The position numbers and the translations under genes are program-made. From the NCBI GenBank assembly GCA_016188295.1, contig JACPIA010000003.1, positions 30-64,029 of the forward strand: a DNA stretch of 64,000 bases, written 5' to 3'. The DNA comes from Candidatus Vogelbacteria bacterium (GTDB lineage Bacteria; Patescibacteriota; Minisyncoccia; Phycocordibacterales; XYD1-FULL-46-19). The notes beneath the pieces were generated by a model. That model saw only the letters and a program-made list of their open reading frames with translations. It ran no database searches and had not been told where the DNA came from. Position 1 is the first letter of the stretch. Every line of letters begins with the position of its first letter. Positions 2,437 to 64,000 of the stretch are shown here, one piece after another.

Positions 2437-4575
2437 ATGGCCAATGTTCCGGACAAACTAACTAAACCTTATGATCCCGCCCAGACTGAAGGGCGGATTT
2501 ATAAAGAGTGGGAGGACGGTAATCACTTTGCTCCTCAAGGCAAAGGCGAATCATTCACCATTATTATGCCGCCGCCAAATGCTAATGGTGACTTACACGC
2601 CGGACACGCCCTCTTTATTACGCTTGAGGACATCATGACTCGCTATGCCCGAATGCAAGGTAAGCGCGCGTTATGGGTCCCAGGGGCCGATCATGCCGGG
2701 TTTGAAACACAGATTGTTTACGAGAAAAAGTTAGAAAAAGAGGGACGATCAAGATTTAAAATGTCGCGTGAGGAGCTCTATCAAGAAATTTTAGCGTTTA
2801 CTTTAGAGAATAAAACCAATATGGAGGCCCAGGTACGTCGCCTCGGCGCCTCTTGTGACTGGAGTCGCGAAAAATTTACTTTAGATCCTGAGGTCGTGGC
2901 CGAAGTAGGACGCACCTTTAAAAAAATGTTTGACGACGATTTAATTTACCGCGGCGAGCGCATTGTTAATTGGTGCTCTAAACACGGCACCTCGCTCTCC
3001 GACGTTGAGACCGAGTTTGTGGAGCAAGTTGATCCCCTTTATTACCTCCAATACGGCCCATTTGTGATTGCGACTACTCGCCCCGAGACCAAATTTGGCG
3101 ATAAGTATGTGGTAACGCACCCCGATGATGAGCGCTACGCTAATTACACTCATGGCCAACAACTTGAGCTGGAGTGGATTAATGGCCCGATTACCGCCAC
3201 TGTTATTAAAGATGACGTTATTGATATGAATTTTGGCACCGGCGTGATGACCATCACCCCGTGGCATGATGCGACCGACTTTGAGATCGCTAAGCGACAC
3301 AATTTAAGTAAAGAGCAGATTATTGATGAACACGGTAAATTATTGCCAGTCGCTGGCGATTTAGCCGGCTTAAAAATCAAAGAGGCTAGAGCTAAAATTA
3401 TGGAAAAGTTACAAGCTAAAGGTTTGATAGTTAAAGTGGAAGATAAATATAACCACGCGGTTAAAACTTGTTACAAATGTGGCACCGCTATTGAGCCTCA
3501 AATCCGCGATCAGTGGTTTGTAAAAATGAAGCCGCTAGCTGACCAAGCGGTTAAAGCGGTTAATGACTGCCAGATTAAATTTATCCCCGACAATCAGCGC
3601 AAAATCTTTTTGTATTGGATGGAAAACACTATTGATTGGAACATCTCGCGCCAAATTGTGTGGGGCATACCAATACCGGCTAAAATTTGTGACGCTTGTC
3701 GCAGTGGTATGCCCGATTTAGAAAATAAAATAACTACTTGTCCTAGTTGTAGTGGCCCAATGCGAACCGATACCGATACTTTTGATACCTGGTTCTCTAG
3801 TGGGCAATGGCCGCAATTAGTCCTTGGTTATCCGGATCATGCTGACTTTAAAACTTTTTACCCCACCAGTGTCATGGAAACGGGCCACGACCTCATTTTT
3901 AAATGGGTACCACGAATGGTTATTTTTGGTCTGTACTTAACCGGGCAAGTCCCCTTCCACACTGTTTACTTGCATGGCTTGGTCAATGACGCTAAGGGTC
4001 AAAAAATGAGTAAATCTAAAGGTAATGTAGTTAGCCCTGAAGAGCTAATTAATGAGTTCGGCACCGATGCTCTGCGTATGGCTTTAGTGGTGGGCAATAC
4101 ACCAGGAACTGACTTGGCTCTCGCTCGTGATAAAGTTAAAGCTTACAAGCACTTTGCTAATAAATTGTGGAATGTGGCCCGTTTTATTATTACTGAATTA
4201 GAGCAAAATAAAGATTGGGTAAAAACTGACTTAACCGAGATCGATCACTTATTATTAAAACAATTTGAGGCAGTGATTAAGGAAGTGACTGGTGATTTAG
4301 AACATTATCGATTTCACTTAGCGGCTGAAAAATTGTATCATTATATATGGCACGAGTTAGCTGATGTGTTAATTGAAGAATCTAAAATCATCTTAAAAAC
4401 CGATGCCGCCAATTCTCGCCGGCAGTTATTGTTTAAAATTTTAGACGGCAGTTTACGCACCTTGCATCCGTTTATGCCCTTTATTACGGAAGAAGTTTGG
4501 TCGCTACTGACTCCTCATCACTCTAATCATCAATTGCTCATTATTACCCCATGGCCGCTGTCCTCCAATTTATAA
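2437..4575 (+). CDS. valS: valyl-tRNA synthetase (short form, 712 aa)
   Basis: Class I aaRS motifs PPPNANGDLHAGHA (HIGH) and KMSKSKGN (KMSKS). The PPPN pattern is typical of ValRS. It appears to lack the long C-terminal coiled-coil. Confidence 0.75.
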   Translation: MANVPDKLTKPYDPAQTEGRIYKEWEDGNHFAPQGKGESFTIIMPPPNANGDLHAGHALFITLEDIMTRYARMQGKRALWVPGADHAGFETQIVYEKKLEKEGRSRFKMSREELYQEILAFTLENKTNMEAQVRRLGASCDWSREKFTLDPEVVAEVGRTFKKMFDDDLIYRGERIVNWCSKHGTSLSDVETEFVEQVDPLYYLQYGPFVIATTRPETKFGDKYVVTHPDDERYANYTHGQQLELEWINGPITATVIKDDVIDMNFGTGVMTITPWHDATDFEIAKRHNLSKEQIIDEHGKLLPVAGDLAGLKIKEARAKIMEKLQAKGLIVKVEDKYNHAVKTCYKCGTAIEPQIRDQWFVKMKPLADQAVKAVNDCQIKFIPDNQRKIFLYWMENTIDWNISRQIVWGIPIPAKICDACRSGMPDLENKITTCPSCSGPMRTDTDTFDTWFSSGQWPQLVLGYPDHADFKTFYPTSVMETGHDLIFKWVPRMVIFGLYLTGQVPFHTVYLHGLVNDAKGQKMSKSKGNVVSPEELINEFGTDALRMALVVGNTPGTDLALARDKVKAYKHFANKLWNVARFIITELEQNKDWVKTDLTEIDHLLLKQFEAVIKEVTGDLEHYRFHLAAEKLYHYIWHELADVLIEESKIILKTDAANSRRQLLFKILDGSLRTLHPFMPFITEEVWSLLTPHHSNHQLLIITPWPLSSNL

Positions 4576-15802: not shown

Positions 15803-16253
15803 GAGCCTGGTCGGATAGTTGCCCCGCCAGTAGTGGGGAGGAAAGTCCGAACATCCTTGATCTTTGATTTAGAAGTACGTCGTGGGTAACGCCCACCCAG
15901 TTGTATGTGAATACAATTGAGGGACAGTGCCACAGAGACAATACTACCCGCCAATATCTTTTAAGGTTGTGGCGGGGAAAGGTGAAAAGTCTATGGAGGT
16001 TTACGCCACCATAGAGAATCCGTAGCGATACGGATACTTGGTAAACCCGACGTGATGCAAGGCCGTGATAATTTAGAGGTTGGAGATTTGAGGTGGGAAG
16101 TTGGATAATCTAATTTCTAACTTCCCACCTCCAACTTCTACTTTGTAGTGCCGCTTGACCCCGAGAGTAATCGAGGGGCTTAGATAAATAACTATCGTCC
16201 AGACTAAAACGTCTGGATACAGAATTCGGCTTATAGATCAGGCAAACAATATC
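15803..16253 (+). ncRNA. rnpB: RNase P RNA (bacterial type A-like)
   Basis: Conserved blocks GGAGGAAAGTCCG, GGGTAACGCCCACCC, CAGTGCCACAGAGACAA, GGTAAACCCGAC and ACAGAATTCGGCTTATAG. P1 pairs GCCTGGTC with GATCAGGC. Carries an extended perfect hairpin at 16078-16140. Confidence 0.85.
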
Positions 16254-58810: not shown

Positions 58811-59374
58811 ATGAGAAGTAAACCCAAGAACATCCATAGCCCTCTAAAACAGAAGGTGCTTACTCTCTTGCTGGCTGGTACCGCCTTGGGACTAACCCGA
58901 TCCTACAAAACCCAAAAGAGAATCTTAAAATCCATACCTAGAACCTTGAGGGATATTGACCGGGGCTATCTGTACCGTATTCTTGATGAATTTAATAACA
59001 ACCGATTAATTGACTGGAAAGAAAAAGCTGATGGTTCTATTTGTTTGATCATTACCGAAAAAGGCAAAGAAACCGCTCTTCAATTTAACCCTGATTTTCT
59101 TAAAATCAAACGACCGCCCATTTGGGATAAGCGTTGGCGAGTAGTTATTTATGACATCCCCGATAAGAAAAAGAGCGCCCGTGACGCCCTACGATACAAA
59201 TTAAAAGAGCTCGGTTTTAAAGAGTGGCAGAAATCTGTTTTTATCCATCCCTACCCTTGTCTCAATGAAATTAACTTTACTGTCGAATTTTTTGATGTCC
59301 GGCCTTATGTCCGTTATGCCGAACTAATCAATCCAACCAATGAAGCGGAGCTTAAACTACATTTCAAAATCTAG
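58811..59374 (+). CDS. wHTH plus Cas2-like domain protein, paralog B
   Basis: C-terminal RWRVVIYDIPDKKKSARDALRYKLKELGFKEWQKSVFIHPYPCLNE is the Cas2-like core. Paralog of 47476-48051. Bracketed by inverted P2 elements. Confidence 0.55.
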   Translation: MRSKPKNIHSPLKQKVLTLLLAGTALGLTRSYKTQKRILKSIPRTLRDIDRGYLYRILDEFNNNRLIDWKEKADGSICLIITEKGKETALQFNPDFLKIKRPPIWDKRWRVVIYDIPDKKKSARDALRYKLKELGFKEWQKSVFIHPYPCLNEINFTVEFFDVRPYVRYAELINPTNEAELKLHFKI

Positions 59375-59909: not shown

Positions 59910-61292
59910 TTATATTTTCTTTACTAAATTATTAAATTGGCCACCTCTATCAAATTCATTACGAAAGATACCAAAGGAAGCGGCACCAGGTGAGAGTAAA
60001 ACCAGATCACCTCTCGTCGCTAAATCCTCGGCCTGTCGAAGAGCCTCCTTCATACTCTCCACTACGGTAACTGGGAATTTTAATTTTTTAGGCAAAACGG
60101 CTAAAATTTTATCGGTGGCAGTGCCTTTAAATAAGACTAGACCTTTTAAATATTTAGGCACAATTTGAGCGTATCGTTTAAAATCGAGCCCTTTGTCGGT
60201 ACCACCACCAATTAAGATTATCTTTCCAAGGTGAGTCCTTGGAGACTGTTTAAAGGACTCCCCTTTAGAGAGGGTGTGTACCGCTGCCATAACGGCGTCG
60301 GGGGTAGTGGCAGTGGTATCATTGTAATACTTTACCCCCTTAACCTCTTTAATCAGCTCTAGCCGCCCCGGTAAACCTTTAAAATCAACTAACACTTTTT
60401 TAATCACTTGATCTTTAACTCCCAACTCCCGCGCGGCGACTACCGCCAACATCGCATTGTATTCATTGTGGACACCTGGTATTTTTAATTGCCAACCGGT
60501 CGGTAATTTGGCTTTAGGAATAATGAGTTTACTTTTGATTTTTACTTTTGATTTTTGTTTTTTGACTTGGTTGCCCAGAATTAGTGTATCTCCCCTTTTT
60601 TGATATTTAAAATTATTAACTTTATCGGCCCAATACCGCTTCATATCACCAGCATAATAATTTAGATGATCCACCATAAAGGTGGTAAAAATGGCTAAAT
60701 GAGGAGAGAGTTTGTTGTCACCAAAACTTTGTAATTGCCAGGAGTCGAGCTCCAAAACCACAATATCACCAGCTTTTATTTTTTTTAATAAAGGCAAAGT
60801 AGCCACCCCCCTGACATTGCCACCCAAAAAAACCTTTCGGTTTTTTTGCCCTGAACCTCGTCGAAGGGCTGATTGCAATATCTTATATAGTAAATGCGTC
60901 ACCGTACTTTTACCACGTGTACCAGTAATGCCGACAATCTTTACGCTCGCTGGTACTAATTTAACAAATAATGAAGCGTCTTGTTCGATTTCAATATTAT
61001 TCTTTTTAGCCTCGGCTAAATAGGGCGAATCAAGTGGTGCATTAGGAGCTCTAATAATTAAGTTTTTATTTTGGAAGTCTTCCAGCCGATGCTCCCCTAA
61101 CACGTATTTTATATTTTTGTATTTACTTAATTGCTTAAGGGCCGGGGCTAATTGCTTGCGAGTTTTAAGATCAGTCACTAAAATATCAACGCCGCAATCA
61201 GCTAAAAATTTAATCACGCCAATACCCCGCCCAAGAAGCCCGAGGCCCATGACAGTTACCTTTTTACCTTTAAAATAATCCCGATAATCCAT
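59910..61292 (-). CDS. murD: UDP-N-acetylmuramoylalanine--D-glutamate ligase
   Basis: N-terminal KKVTVMGLGLLGRGIGVIKFL Rossmann domain, Mur ligase GTRGKST and a C-terminal domain. Confidence 0.85.
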   Translation of the reverse strand: MDYRDYFKGKKVTVMGLGLLGRGIGVIKFLADCGVDILVTDLKTRKQLAPALKQLSKYKNIKYVLGEHRLEDFQNKNLIIRAPNAPLDSPYLAEAKKNNIEIEQDASLFVKLVPASVKIVGITGTRGKSTVTHLLYKILQSALRRGSGQKNRKVFLGGNVRGVATLPLLKKIKAGDIVVLELDSWQLQSFGDNKLSPHLAIFTTFMVDHLNYYAGDMKRYWADKVNNFKYQKRGDTLILGNQVKKQKSKVKIKSKLIIPKAKLPTGWQLKIPGVHNEYNAMLAVVAARELGVKDQVIKKVLVDFKGLPGRLELIKEVKGVKYYNDTTATTPDAVMAAVHTLSKGESFKQSPRTHLGKIILIGGGTDKGLDFKRYAQIVPKYLKGLVLFKGTATDKILAVLPKKLKFPVTVVESMKEALRQAEDLATRGDLVLLSPGAASFGIFRNEFDRGGQFNNLVKKI

Positions 61293-61353
61293 ATCGAGCC
61301 TATTCTATCATACTATTGTTTTAGGACTATTTTTTTGTTATAGTCGCTTAAAT

Positions 61354-61430
61354 GCGCGTGTAGCTCAGGTGGTTAGAGCGCGTCACTGATAATGACGAGG
61401 TCGTAGGTTCGAGTCCTACCATGCGCACCA
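61354..61430 (+). tRNA. tRNA-Ile (anticodon GAT), CCA encoded
   Basis: GCGCGTGTAGCTCAGGTGGTTAGAGCG...ctGATaa...GGTTCGAGTCC...CATGCGCACCA. Candidate promoter TTGTTT-17-TATAGT lies upstream. Confidence 0.85.
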
Positions 61431-61639
61431 AAACTAACTTTGTCGGAAATGACTGCTCCGCGCGGCGAGTACGCCGCGCTCCGCAGGGCAAAATCCGCTC
61501 CTCTTTCCTAATCCTGAAAATGTCTCTACTGGTGCTGTAATTCTACACTTTGCGCGAACCTTTTTCGAACGGAAACTGAACGAAACTCACCGCGGGTTTC
61601 TCAAAGTTGTTCATTCGTAAACGAAAGGAGGTGAGAACT

Positions 61640-61795
61640 ATGGACGCGAAGCACCCCTCGCTTCTCGACCAGCTTTTCGAGTCGGTTCCCGAGACGCCCG
61701 CGGCGGAGCTTGGGTCGTACGACCCGATCACCCAGACGTGGTCGCATCGGAACGCGCGGCTCATGAGCCCGGTCAAGCACAATCAGGAGCACTAG
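61640..61795 (+). CDS. small ORF (51 aa) with strong Shine-Dalgarno; candidate peptide
   Basis: AAAGGAGGTGAgaactATG. Acidic, Ser/Thr-rich peptide MDAKHPSLLDQLFESVPETPAAELGSYDPITQTWSHRNARLMSPVKHNQEH, GC-rich. A hairpin-plus-T-run terminator lies at 61805-61850. Confidence 0.35.
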   Translation: MDAKHPSLLDQLFESVPETPAAELGSYDPITQTWSHRNARLMSPVKHNQEH

Positions 61796-61841
61796 CTCCA
61801 CAATAGCTCATCAAGAGAACTATCTTGATGGGCTATTTCTT

Positions 61842-63683
61842 TTACGCACCTAATGCAAATCGAATTGCCTTAGCTATTAACCGTACGCGAAGGTTAGTAT
61901 TAGTGAATCCTCCTATATGACCGGATCTAAACCACTCAACATCAAAGCTTTTCTTATTCTTTTTGAGCACATCAATAAAGCGTTTCATTTGACGAGGTGG
62001 ACAACGAATATCATTCTCTCCATGTAAAATAAGCAAGGGCGATTGTATATGATTCACGTAAGTTATGGGCGAACTGCGCAGATAGCGAGAGCGCGCGGTC
62101 TCCGGCGTTCCTCTAAATCTTTCCTCGTCCTGCGCCCGAAAATACGCTGGCTCATTTTCGTATTGTGTAAGACAGTCTGCGATCCCCGCGCCCGCAACAC
62201 TCGAACTCCACAATGCCGGATAGGTTCCCGTCGCAAGTAGTGTAACATACCCTCCCCACGACCATCCGTACAACGTGATGCGTTTTGGATCGGCATAGCG
62301 GTTTTGGATAAGCCAGTTTCGCGCGGAAACAATATCTTCAACTTCCCAATGTCCCGGATTACCGTATATTTTTCGTTCAAATTTCTTGCCAAACCCGATC
62401 GAGCCGCGATAATTCACCGCGCAATACCCGAAGCCGCTTTCAATCCAGGCATGCATTTCCGGCGAAAATTCATCACCAACAACCCCATGCGGACCTCCGT
62501 GTACATCTATAACGAACGGCGGCTGTTTTATGCCTTTAGGTTGCATAATCCACATCTGCACATCTTCCCCATCGGAGGAGCGAGTCCAAAGACTTTTCAC
62601 GATATATTGAGATTTGATATTTCCCGACCATTCTGGTATTTCGCTCCATTTGTTGTATTGCGACGCATAGAGACGAATCAAACGAGGAGAATTATTGAAA
62701 TCGCTCCATTTAAAAATGAGTGAATTATCTGATAGGCGTACAACTGAACCAAAGTGGAAATTAAAACTGCCATTTTTAGGACCGATCCGCCGCAGGCTTT
62801 TATTCTCTAAATTGTAGATATACAACTTTTGTTGTGCCTGATAAACATCACAAAGAATCATTTCTTTACGATTTTCATTCCAATCAAGTACCCATACATC
62901 GCCGCGGAAGGAACCGTGTTGTATAAACGAAACGCGGTTATGCGCAAAGTCGTACAGCATAGGCCGGAGCCACTCGCCGCGTCTTGCAAGAGCGAGTATT
63001 TTACGTTGATCTGCTATTCGTGAGAACGCGAGGGGAGTGACGGAGCTAAAAGAACACGAACATATTTTCCTCTCACCGCCGTTGGTCGGTATAACGAGGA
63101 TTGTGTTTTGTTTCGTTTTCACATCAGTTTCAGCCACGCACACATACGTGCCATCGGAAGAGCAAATTGATTCGGAAAGAGAAGTGGCAGAGGTATGCAC
63201 GTTATAAGTTTGACGTGTGCCGTTATTGCTTTCTTTCGTAACAAAAATAGTATTTTTATTTTCTAGAGCGGCGGTAAACACGAGTGTTTTTTCGTCATCG
63301 CTTGCGTTCATGGAGTATGAAAAATACGGCTTGAGACGCGGCGTCATATCAATTTGTTTACCACCCTCAAAAGGAATTTGTAAAAAATGACCGTGCTCAG
63401 CGCCCTTTTTGTCGTCAAGAATATAGATATATTGCCCATCCGAAGAAATTGAGCCAAAAAGAGCCCCTCCTTTTCGCCTGGTAATTTGCCGGTGAAAACC
63501 ACTCGCAAAATCAACCGCATGAAGCTGATAATCTCCGGAACGGTTGGAAACCACAATCGCTCTATGCGGCGCATTTTGCGCAGTAAATAAATACTGCACA
63601 CTCGGCGTTTTGAATAACGATTGCAGTCGCGAAATGGATATAAAACTATATCGACCAATTTGTTTTATCATACGAGGATACAT
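61842..63683 (-). CDS. S9 family serine peptidase (prolyl oligopeptidase / acylaminoacyl-peptidase-like) with N-terminal beta-propeller
   Basis: Nucleophile elbow GWSWGG and a C-terminal HGENDIRCP (Asp/His region), 613 aa. Confidence 0.75.
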   Translation of the reverse strand: MYPRMIKQIGRYSFISISRLQSLFKTPSVQYLFTAQNAPHRAIVVSNRSGDYQLHAVDFASGFHRQITRRKGGALFGSISSDGQYIYILDDKKGAEHGHFLQIPFEGGKQIDMTPRLKPYFSYSMNASDDEKTLVFTAALENKNTIFVTKESNNGTRQTYNVHTSATSLSESICSSDGTYVCVAETDVKTKQNTILVIPTNGGERKICSCSFSSVTPLAFSRIADQRKILALARRGEWLRPMLYDFAHNRVSFIQHGSFRGDVWVLDWNENRKEMILCDVYQAQQKLYIYNLENKSLRRIGPKNGSFNFHFGSVVRLSDNSLIFKWSDFNNSPRLIRLYASQYNKWSEIPEWSGNIKSQYIVKSLWTRSSDGEDVQMWIMQPKGIKQPPFVIDVHGGPHGVVGDEFSPEMHAWIESGFGYCAVNYRGSIGFGKKFERKIYGNPGHWEVEDIVSARNWLIQNRYADPKRITLYGWSWGGYVTLLATGTYPALWSSSVAGAGIADCLTQYENEPAYFRAQDEERFRGTPETARSRYLRSSPITYVNHIQSPLLILHGENDIRCPPRQMKRFIDVLKKNKKSFDVEWFRSGHIGGFTNTNLRVRLIAKAIRFALGA

Positions 63684-63733
63684 ATATTTTACTATAAGTC
63701 GATACTATAAATAAAAGAAAGGGGCGGTCGGTT

Positions 63734-64000
63734 TTACGCCGAGCCGCCCATTCGAGAAACGAGCGCATCTGCAAGAGCACGACAGATGGCGCCATTATAG
63801 AACTGGTCAAGCCACCACCACGCACCGCATGTGTTCACTTCAAGGAAAAACAGATTTCCATCCGTGTCTTCCATGAAGTCAGCCGCGCAGTAATCAAGCT
63901 GAAGCATGCGCATAAGTGAATGGAGCTTGTGTGTTGTTTCTGCATCAACATTGCAAGCCTCAAACGATTCGCCTGCGCCACTCTCTTTGCGCACGTCCTC
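63734..64000 (-). CDS. ATP-grasp family protein, C-terminal part only (gene continues beyond the window end)
   Basis: C-terminal LFFLEVNTCGAWWWLD resembles the ATP-grasp C-domain (Mg/ATP-binding E-x-N). Truncated by the window. Confidence 0.4.
   Translation of the reverse strand, partial: EDVRKESGAGESFEACNVDAETTHKLHSLMRMLQLDYCAADFMEDTDGNLFFLEVNTCGAWWWLDQFYNGAICRALADALVSRMGGSA

Follow-up and report, generated by a model that had tools for sequence, protein, structure and literature searches.

The last part of the analysed stretch of DNA, a 64,000-nucleotide window of a Candidatus Vogelbacteria contig to which all coordinates given here refer, carries three neighbouring genes for a short peptide, a serine peptidase of family S9, and an ATP-grasp ligase, the last of them cut by the window end. 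With a probability that we put at about three in four, this module is a compact graspetide-type pathway for a peptide made on the ribosome and then modified after translation (RiPP) in a genome of the candidate phyla radiation (CPR, or Patescibacteria). A graspetide-like cluster had been proposed in an initial annotation, which made it depend on the ATP-grasp protein not being a RimK/GshB-type housekeeping enzyme and on the small open reading frame (ORF) being conserved at homologous loci. Both points come out in its favor, as the ligase is of the macrocyclase type and the small ORF is conserved. The three genes are arranged as follows.

61640-61795, plus strand: precursor peptide gene (HYV76_00780), 51 residues, with a leader of about residues 1-20, PSLLDQLFESVPETP, and a core, YDPITQTWSHRNARLMSPVKHNQEH.
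61842-63683, minus strand: S9 serine peptidase gene, 613 residues, with a putative N-terminal β-propeller region and a C-terminal α/β-hydrolase domain (Pfam PF00326, 1.6e-40).
63734-64000, minus strand: C-terminal 88 codons of the ATP-grasp gene (HYV76_00790, 318 residues in full), the remainder being taken from positions 26-982 of contig L001.

The sequence features that had been listed initially, namely the tRNA gene, the rise in GC content, the ORF, its terminator, the S9 gene, and the ATP-grasp gene, are all present at their coordinates. The 51-codon ORF translates exactly as quoted and follows the Shine-Dalgarno sequence AAAGGAGGTGA (61624-61634), with 5 nucleotides (nt) between it and the ATG, and it is from this sequence that strong translation had been deduced initially; the S9 gene, convergent with it, encodes the motif GWSWGG. 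In NCBI the precursor gene is already a coding sequence, described as a 'hypothetical protein' with no function given, and the ATP-grasp gene bears the same description; both entries are placed on an 87-kb contig.

The full ATP-grasp gene was recovered from L001, a 3101-bp contig of Logan accession SRR12113420 that was found by the exact peptidase sequence and contains the whole ATP-grasp gene, the peptidase gene, and the small ORF; exact searches with the peptidase and ATP-grasp proteins yielded no other contig. Among the NCBIfam profiles, the ligase is matched best, in full-length alignments, by GRASP_SAV_5884 (1.9e-49), MvdC (4.7e-40), and MvdD (1.9e-35), with weaker matches to the RimK family (8e-16) and to glutathione synthase (3e-3). 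In Pfam, an ATP-grasp domain of the RimK-like kind is recognized, and PF21068, the pre-ATP-grasp domain of MvdD, stays under the threshold at 6.6e-4. The nearest proteins with known structures, aligned over the full length, are MdnB/MdnC (3e-22), AMdnB, CdnC, PruB, and PsnB, with E-values ranging from 3e-22 to 3e-12. An AlphaFold2 model based on 54 homologs has a mean predicted local distance difference test score (pLDDT) of 89.5, and in a Foldseek comparison with the PDB ranks 1-32 are all occupied by graspetide macrocyclases (E-values 7e-26 to 8e-18, TM-scores 0.67-0.86). ArgX, LysX, and RimK come next, their E-values lying around 1e-15 to 1e-13 and their identities at 13-19% (13-14% for RimK). 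Judged by its profile matches, its sequence relatives, and its modelled fold, the ATP-grasp protein belongs with the graspetide macrocyclases MdnB/MdnC, CdnC, PsnB, and PruB, i.e., the dedicated kind of ligase (MdnB/MdnC, or MvdC/MvdD) by which graspetide pathways are recognized, and not a RimK enzyme.

The alternative, in which the protein would be a RimK/LysX-like ligase that extends a small carrier protein by amino acids in its C-terminal region, takes its appeal from the RimK domain being the only Pfam name above threshold, from a fold common to RimK, LysX, and ArgX, and from the invariant glutamate near the C terminus of the peptide. However, RiPP maturase profiles exceed that of RimK by more than 100 bits, macrocyclase folds match at least ten orders of magnitude better than RimK, and the score of the RimK profile TIGR00768, 58 bits against a cut-off of 143, places the ligase outside that family. 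Taken together with the leader-like N-terminal region of the peptide, which carries a graspetide signature, and with the variability of its last residue (both described below), these comparisons make a RimK/LysX-like role very improbable.

The distribution of the precursor was followed by scanning the ligase alignment against the JGI metagenomes and against GTDB, each species being represented there by a single genome and the genome of this window not being among them, which yielded 51 loci, or 52 with L001, nearly all of them labelled as CPR lineages (Vogelbacteria, Zambryskibacteria, Ryanbacteria, Taylorbacteria, Peribacteria, and Paceibacterota). A profile of the peptide detects the precursor in 41 of these 52; in the other 11, either the contig ends short of the expected site or the locus is decayed and its ligase fragmentary. 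With four out of four further Logan contigs also carrying it, the precursor lies beside the ATP-grasp gene in all 45 evaluable loci (41 + 4). About 45 more short peptides of the same family emerge from a profile search of 1.84 billion representative proteins, and the peptide itself has no family match in Pfam or, to an E-value of 0.1, in NCBIfam. When 28 distinct nucleotide versions are compared over a 25-codon core, pairwise differences at codon positions 1, 2, and 3 number 2928, 2295, and 5379, a pattern that fits the sense frame, and the stop codon is always found one residue past the invariant glutamate. By these marks of coding sequence, the 51-codon ORF is a real gene. The antisense ORF at 61601-61801 (66 codons), which the gene caller chose on L001, was considered as a candidate and rejected, given the sense-frame codon pattern and the stops that interrupt it in 4 of the 28 variants. 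A 38-residue version of the peptide, with the core kept and neither the LFEP leader nor a Shine-Dalgarno sequence, is present in one lineage (L004, L037, and L040; e.g., L004 7947-8063), where the gene has either decayed or lost its leader as a variant form.

The base composition of the precursor gene differs from that of its surroundings. Past the tRNA-Ile(GAT) gene the GC content rises, as had been pointed out initially, from about 0.40 to 0.56 (400 nt, 61400-61799), and the precursor ORF reaches a GC content of 0.64 and a GC content at third codon positions (GC3) of 0.88. The rest of the window has a GC content of 0.435, and GC3 in its 29 large ORFs ranges from 0.29 to 0.54 around a median of 0.43; the ATP-grasp gene has a GC3 of 0.54, and that of the peptidase gene, 0.42, is host-like. 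A GC3 so far beyond the host range, the open antisense frame preferred by the gene caller, and the adjoining tRNA gene could all be accommodated if foreign or mobile DNA had inserted at tRNA-Ile and left the GC-rich stretch behind, with the small ORF being open through its high GC content rather than as a gene. That explanation is, nevertheless, extremely improbable in view of the conservation of the peptide in 45 loci with host GC contents of 0.29-0.65, the codon-position pattern and antisense stops, and the fixed place of the stop codon. Inspection of the ORFs between 59000 and the end of the window, without a profile search, brought no integrase to notice, and no second copy of the tRNA-Ile 3′ end was found in the window or in the fetched loci, the far boundary lying beyond the window. 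The tRNA adjacency emphasized initially is true of this window, where tRNA-Ile adjoins the module, but it is not general in the family: of the 33 related loci scanned, only 3 have a gene for a tRNA or a tmRNA at a distance of up to about 1.2 kb. A tRNA-linked island was dropped as a candidate explanation, given that the adjacency is not general and that no tRNA-end repeat was found in the window and the fetched loci.

Where long flanks are available, the GC content of the precursor and ligase genes exceeds that of the flanks in most loci, and a high precursor GC3 recurs in many relatives, although not in all; the short gene may have been exchanged horizontally, or selection may have acted on its nucleotides. 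Identity at four-fold sites to L016 is equal over all three genes (0.73-0.74). For L015 it amounts to 0.75 in the precursor, 0.66 in the ligase, and 0.45 in the peptidase, and for L034, with its ligase gene cut at the contig end, to 0.83 in the precursor and 0.47 in the peptidase, the figures for the short precursor gene being small counts over about 20 sites. These identities suggest a mosaic, horizontally exchanged module.

The consensus of the precursor family reads M-x(3-10)-(P)-h-h-x-x-L-F-E-P-V-P-E-T-P-x-x-E-L-G-x-Y-D-P-x-T-Q-T-W-S-H-R-x5-S-P-V-K-H-N-Q-E-x, and consists of a graspetide-style leader, hhxxLFEPVPETP, and a core, YDPxTQTWSHR-x5-SPVKHNQE-x. The leader motif of the relatives, P-h-h-x-x-L-F-E-P, fits the signature Phhx(1,2)h exactly in many members (PLLLQLF, PLVKRLF, PLINRLF, and PVLARLF), and the Vogelbacteria peptide reads P-S-L-L-D-Q-L-F, with one residue more after the proline. 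This signature was derived for graspetides, CPR examples such as MPFALRFAEP included (PMC8939145). Near-invariant or fully invariant residues of the core are Tyr27, Thr/Ser33, Ser/Thr43, Pro44, Lys46, and Glu50, so that the short precursor next to the ligase combines a leader with a core in which Thr33, Ser43, Lys46, and Glu50 are suitable and (nearly) constant, as is sought in a graspetide. The residue following Glu50 varies (H/E/N/S/A/M/Q), and many members have Asn, Ser, Gln, or Val in place of Asp28. The core had been described initially as rich in Thr, Ser, Asp, and Glu, which overstates its acidity in the family, where a single core acid is invariant.

The profile of the peptide also matches the blade junctions of Kelch-repeat β-propellers (lEaYDPkTntWs..apMPtpR; P0145, P0147, P0149, and P0200), each of these proteins being matched 4-12 times, with the likeness spanning residues 23-44 of the peptide (ELGxYDPxTQTWS...MSP); single peptides reach no Pfam Kelch model. 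Since an alternation of YDP and YNP is common to the Kelch junctions and to the peptide family, YDPxT would be a hairpin-forming Asx-turn in which Asp28 has a structural role, and by this analogy Asp28 is more likely an Asx-turn residue than an acyl donor. With Glu50 as the single invariant acid, one obligatory lactam or lactone is predicted. The partner of Glu50 would most likely be Lys46, in an (i,i+4) lactam, with a lactone to Thr33 or Ser43 as the alternatives; where Asp28 is present, a second ring may possibly be formed through it.

The S9 gene accompanies the precursor and the ligase in 19 of the 28 non-redundant loci, the closer relatives keeping all three genes. Across the loci the module is found in four gene orders (> and < give the direction of transcription), the classic arrangement with the precursor immediately 5′ of the ligase being among them.

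Order A (this window): ligase>, S9>, <peptide.
Order B: peptide>, <S9, ligase>.
Order C: S9, <peptide, ligase>.
Order D: peptide directly by the ligase, with no adjoining S9 gene; eight loci of this type have the gene for a 172-residue protein.

The peptidase belongs to family S9 by its GxSxGG serine and its aspartate and histidine in an α/β-hydrolase domain, and the catalytic triad Ser475, Asp558, and His589 is conserved across 20 homologs. Its best relative with a known structure is the acylaminoacyl peptidase from Aeropyrum (1ve6, 2e-33; S9C type), and the propeller region shows TolB and Kelch matches, both weak. Thus, of the initial assignment to the prolyl-oligopeptidase family S9, the family stands, but the nearest enzymes are acylaminoacyl peptidases (S9C) and not prolyl endopeptidases. 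In the eight distant loci the ligase is followed instead by the conserved 172-residue protein (L009 2302-2838, L010 11019-11537, L035, L036, L041, L044, L045, and L051), which is unrelated to S9, shows weak similarity to DUF7689, contains conserved Cys and His residues, and has no firm family; it may be a substitute hydrolase. Locus L010 additionally encodes a stand-alone S9-like hydrolase domain of 305 residues. A protein of about 195 residues that contains the HExxH motif ALAHELIH and matches nothing in Pfam is encoded near the module in three or four lineages (L002 901-1485, L019 5159-5758, and L006 9280-9882), and is absent from the window.

The exchange of the S9 enzyme for another putative hydrolase while the peptide stays is the pattern expected of a processing enzyme, and the S9 protein would, to our knowledge, be the first dedicated S9 maturation enzyme, or the first S9 resistance or target partner, of a graspetide. 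The latter role defines an alternative in which the cyclised peptide would be a serine-protease inhibitor that regulates the S9 enzyme or is neutralised by it. The peptide and S9 genes are tightly convergent on one common terminator (orders A and B), microviridin-type graspetides inhibit serine proteases, and the core resembles a Kelch blade junction, with the S9 enzyme itself having a propeller domain; proteases near graspetide clusters have also been proposed as resistance genes (PMC13097080). We nevertheless consider a target or self-resistance partner unlikely, as distant loci swap the S9 gene for that of the 172-residue protein and keep the core, which is easier to understand as replacement of a processing enzyme than of a target, and as the HExxH protein is added in some loci. 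For an S9 enzyme that removes the leader of a RiPP, FlaP provides a precedent (PMC10885120).

In the graspetide-type pathway that we favor, the 51-residue product of 61640-61795 would serve as the precursor, the N-terminal leader of which, as a variant of the Phhx(1,2)h signature, would be bound by the ATP-grasp ligase. With ATP, the ligase would phosphorylate the side-chain carboxylate of Glu50 and join it to a side-chain hydroxyl or amine, creating one ring, and the cytoplasmic S9C oligopeptidase would then take off the leader or trim the modified peptide.

Several observations weigh against this pathway. The scores of the ligase in NCBIfam are all far under the curated cut-offs, the best one being 168 bits against 350, and the ligase therefore falls into none of the curated equivalogs. 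Penultimate Glu50 is the sole invariant acidic residue of the core, and most characterised graspetides have at least two rings. The peptidase resembles S9C enzymes and not the proline-specific S9A ones, so that cleavage at the conserved prolines is not implied; a proline-specific removal of the leader, considered as a candidate role, was dropped as unsupported by the acylaminoacyl-peptidase type of the subfamily. As far as the module can be seen it includes no transporter gene, the flank to the right of the ATP-grasp gene lying outside the window. Additionally, the precursors of two close relatives have an in-frame TAG in place of the family CAG, at Gln32 in L016 (precursor at about 2997-3152, minus strand) and at Gln49 in L034 (about 2610-2770, minus strand), which could be due to inactivation, sequencing error, or read-through; the ligase and S9 genes of L016 are intact, both complete on the contig.

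Comparison with the microviridin system (MdnA with MdnB/MdnC) reveals the same ligase fold, with a full-length relative (5ig8/5ig9, E-value 3e-22, TM-score 0.8), and a precursor similarly built of a leader helix followed by the core. In microviridins, too, the penultimate core residue is an acid that takes part in a ring, and a Lys-Glu lactam is present. The differences are a ligase identity of 21-26%, one ligase per locus here instead of two, a dedicated S9 peptidase, and the CPR host; in addition, the Vogelbacteria peptide has neither the PFFARFL leader nor the TxKxPSDxE(D/E) core, and is not a member of graspetide group 1. The best curated profile for the ligase, GRASP_SAV_5884 (TIGR04187), covers residues 5-310, but besides the shortfall in score the peptide matches no NCBIfam family. 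A closer parallel in host is offered by branches 1 and 2 of the CPR graspetides described by Makarova et al. in 2022 (PMC8939145), for which precursors were often not found and a possible α/β hydrolase was noted in branch 2. The leaders reported there, MPFALRFAEP and TPLLLRRIE (Phhx(1,2)h, then E or EP), are similar to PLLLQLFEP and PLVKRLFEP of the present family, whereas the cores there follow TxxxTx(6-10)Dx(1-4)D, a motif different from the core described here.

In FlaP, an S9-family oligopeptidase within a RiPP cluster acts on a peptide substrate of about 50 residues (PMC10885120), and the precursor in this window has conserved prolines (PVPETP and SP). However, FlaP belongs to another RiPP class, and the enzyme studied here is nearest to acylaminoacyl peptidases (S9C), with a role that is a proposed one. 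The spacing K46-x3-E50 is the same as that of the Lys-x3-Asp isopeptide in corallotide (Lys9-Asp13 i,i+4 lactam; PMC13097080), which differs in having five repeats and a hydroxylation and in coming from Corallococcus, in contrast to the one motif and predicted link of the present peptide. The motifs TQTW, WSHR, SPVKH, and KHNQE, as well as conserved motifs of the ligase, do not occur in the accessible part of the supplementary files of PMC8939145, and the accessible part of the supplements of a 2026 RODEO survey of 43 groups (PMC13097080) contains none of WSHR, SPVKH, PF00326, and 'prolyl oligopeptidase', which in neither case proves their absence. Thus, the kind of system is known, and the peptide family and its association with S9 were not found in the accessible portion of the literature searched. 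The traits that make the module unusual are the single invariant acid, the linkage to S9, and inverted repeats at the promoters.

The remaining features of the locus are the following.

61354-61430, plus strand: tRNA-Ile(GAT), identified with ARAGORN (Rfam, 72 bits), the left neighbour of the module and outside it.
61460-61479, plus strand: G-C stem of 8 pairs, GCGCGGCG-AGTA-CGCCGCGC, read by eye between the tRNA gene and the precursor promoter region.
61514-61541, plus strand: putative precursor promoter as read from the sequence, CTGAAA, 16 nt, and TGTAAT, with TG upstream.
61582-61600, plus strand: hairpin GAAACTC-ACCGC-GGGTTTC in the 5′ untranslated region (5′UTR), common to a subclade of relatives.
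61615-61644, plus strand: one inverted-repeat arm, 30 nt or longer (5′UTR, Shine-Dalgarno sequence, ATG, and GA), the other arm being 5′ of the ATP-grasp gene, past the window end.
61802-61837, plus strand: intrinsic terminator of the precursor gene, a 15-bp stem and a T-run between the convergent genes (-21.4 kcal/mol, z = -7.2 against shuffled sequences).
63708-63749, minus strand: terminator-like GC-rich hairpin in the gap between the ligase and S9 genes, with the ATP-grasp stop codon in its loop, followed by a U-run.

A consensus scan made no call at 61514-61541, and at the equivalent site L019 and L034 have TTGTAT...TATGAT/TATGGT. The segment 61431-61520, which spans the G-C stem, has a folding energy of -27.8 kcal/mol (z = -2.2), and a search of 61000-64000 with Rfam finds no RNA family other than tRNA-Ile. 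The RNAalifold consensus of the 5′UTR hairpin has 9 pairs in 7 sequences, with one-sided (wobble) changes and no double compensatory change; its sequence, AGAAAYYCR-NNN-YGRGTTTCT, lies about 20-45 nt 5′ of the Shine-Dalgarno sequence and is also present in L015, L019, L025, and L034. The hairpins that other relatives have at a comparable position are unrelated to it, and the mean z over 28 5′UTRs is -0.96. A structured RNA in the 5′UTR was set aside as a candidate on account of the wobble-type changes alone, the z of 0.0 of the window 5′UTR against shuffled sequences, and that mean of the relatives. The hairpin at 63708-63749 may be a terminator or an attenuator between the ligase and peptidase genes; the fold of 63690-63765 (minus strand) has -19.8 kcal/mol and z = -1.5, and a consensus scan made no call. 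Since this hairpin lies across the stop codon of the ligase gene, a separate promoter may serve the S9 gene. Elsewhere in the window, a 187-residue protein with a PaaX/Cas2-like middle domain is encoded at 58811-59374, about 2 kb upstream of the module, and the RNase P RNA gene at 15803-16249, with 447 nt against the 367 positions of the model, carries insertions.

The two ends of L001 (1-30 and 3072-3101) are the same 30 nt in inverted orientation, TCGTAAACGAAAGGAGGTGAGAACTATGGA, placed at the starts of the precursor and ligase genes, and this 30-mer is present once in the window. Logan contigs come from an assembly with k = 31, and as 30 equals k-1 the repeat may exceed 30 nt. Comparable inverted repeats are found in four other loci.

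L018: 5738-5986 and 9064-9312, 249 nt, 99%.
L019: 5876-6006 and 9050-9180, 131 nt, 95%.
L025: 498-547 and 3661-3710, 50 nt, 82%.
L053: contig ends, a 30-nt terminal pair.

Near-identity of such repeats implies that the precursor and ligase units share one promoter/leader sequence that is kept homogeneous, and the length of 3.1-3.9 kb of many public contigs of the family is probably a consequence of inverted repeats bracketing the 3.1-kb module. We can speculate that a minimal graspetide, with one obligatory ring at its C-terminal Glu and a Kelch-like hairpin core, might be a dedicated ligand or inhibitor of the co-encoded propeller S9 enzyme, carried on a promoter-inverted-repeat cassette that spreads and recombines among CPR bacteria. 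Such a combination is distinctly unlikely; if true, the module would be a self-contained protease-regulator pair and not a secreted natural product.

For the graspetide-type pathway, the family provides a well-defined precursor to follow from locus to locus, where the 2022 survey, the first to report CPR graspetide clusters, often found none, as well as a simple testable prediction, one ring at Glu50, and at 3.1 kb the module is small enough for direct synthesis and expression. The genomes of CPR bacteria are tiny, with few recognised genes for specialised metabolites. As a module of three genes that many CPR lineages keep despite such tiny genomes, it is likely to be of importance in the episymbiotic lifestyle of these bacteria.

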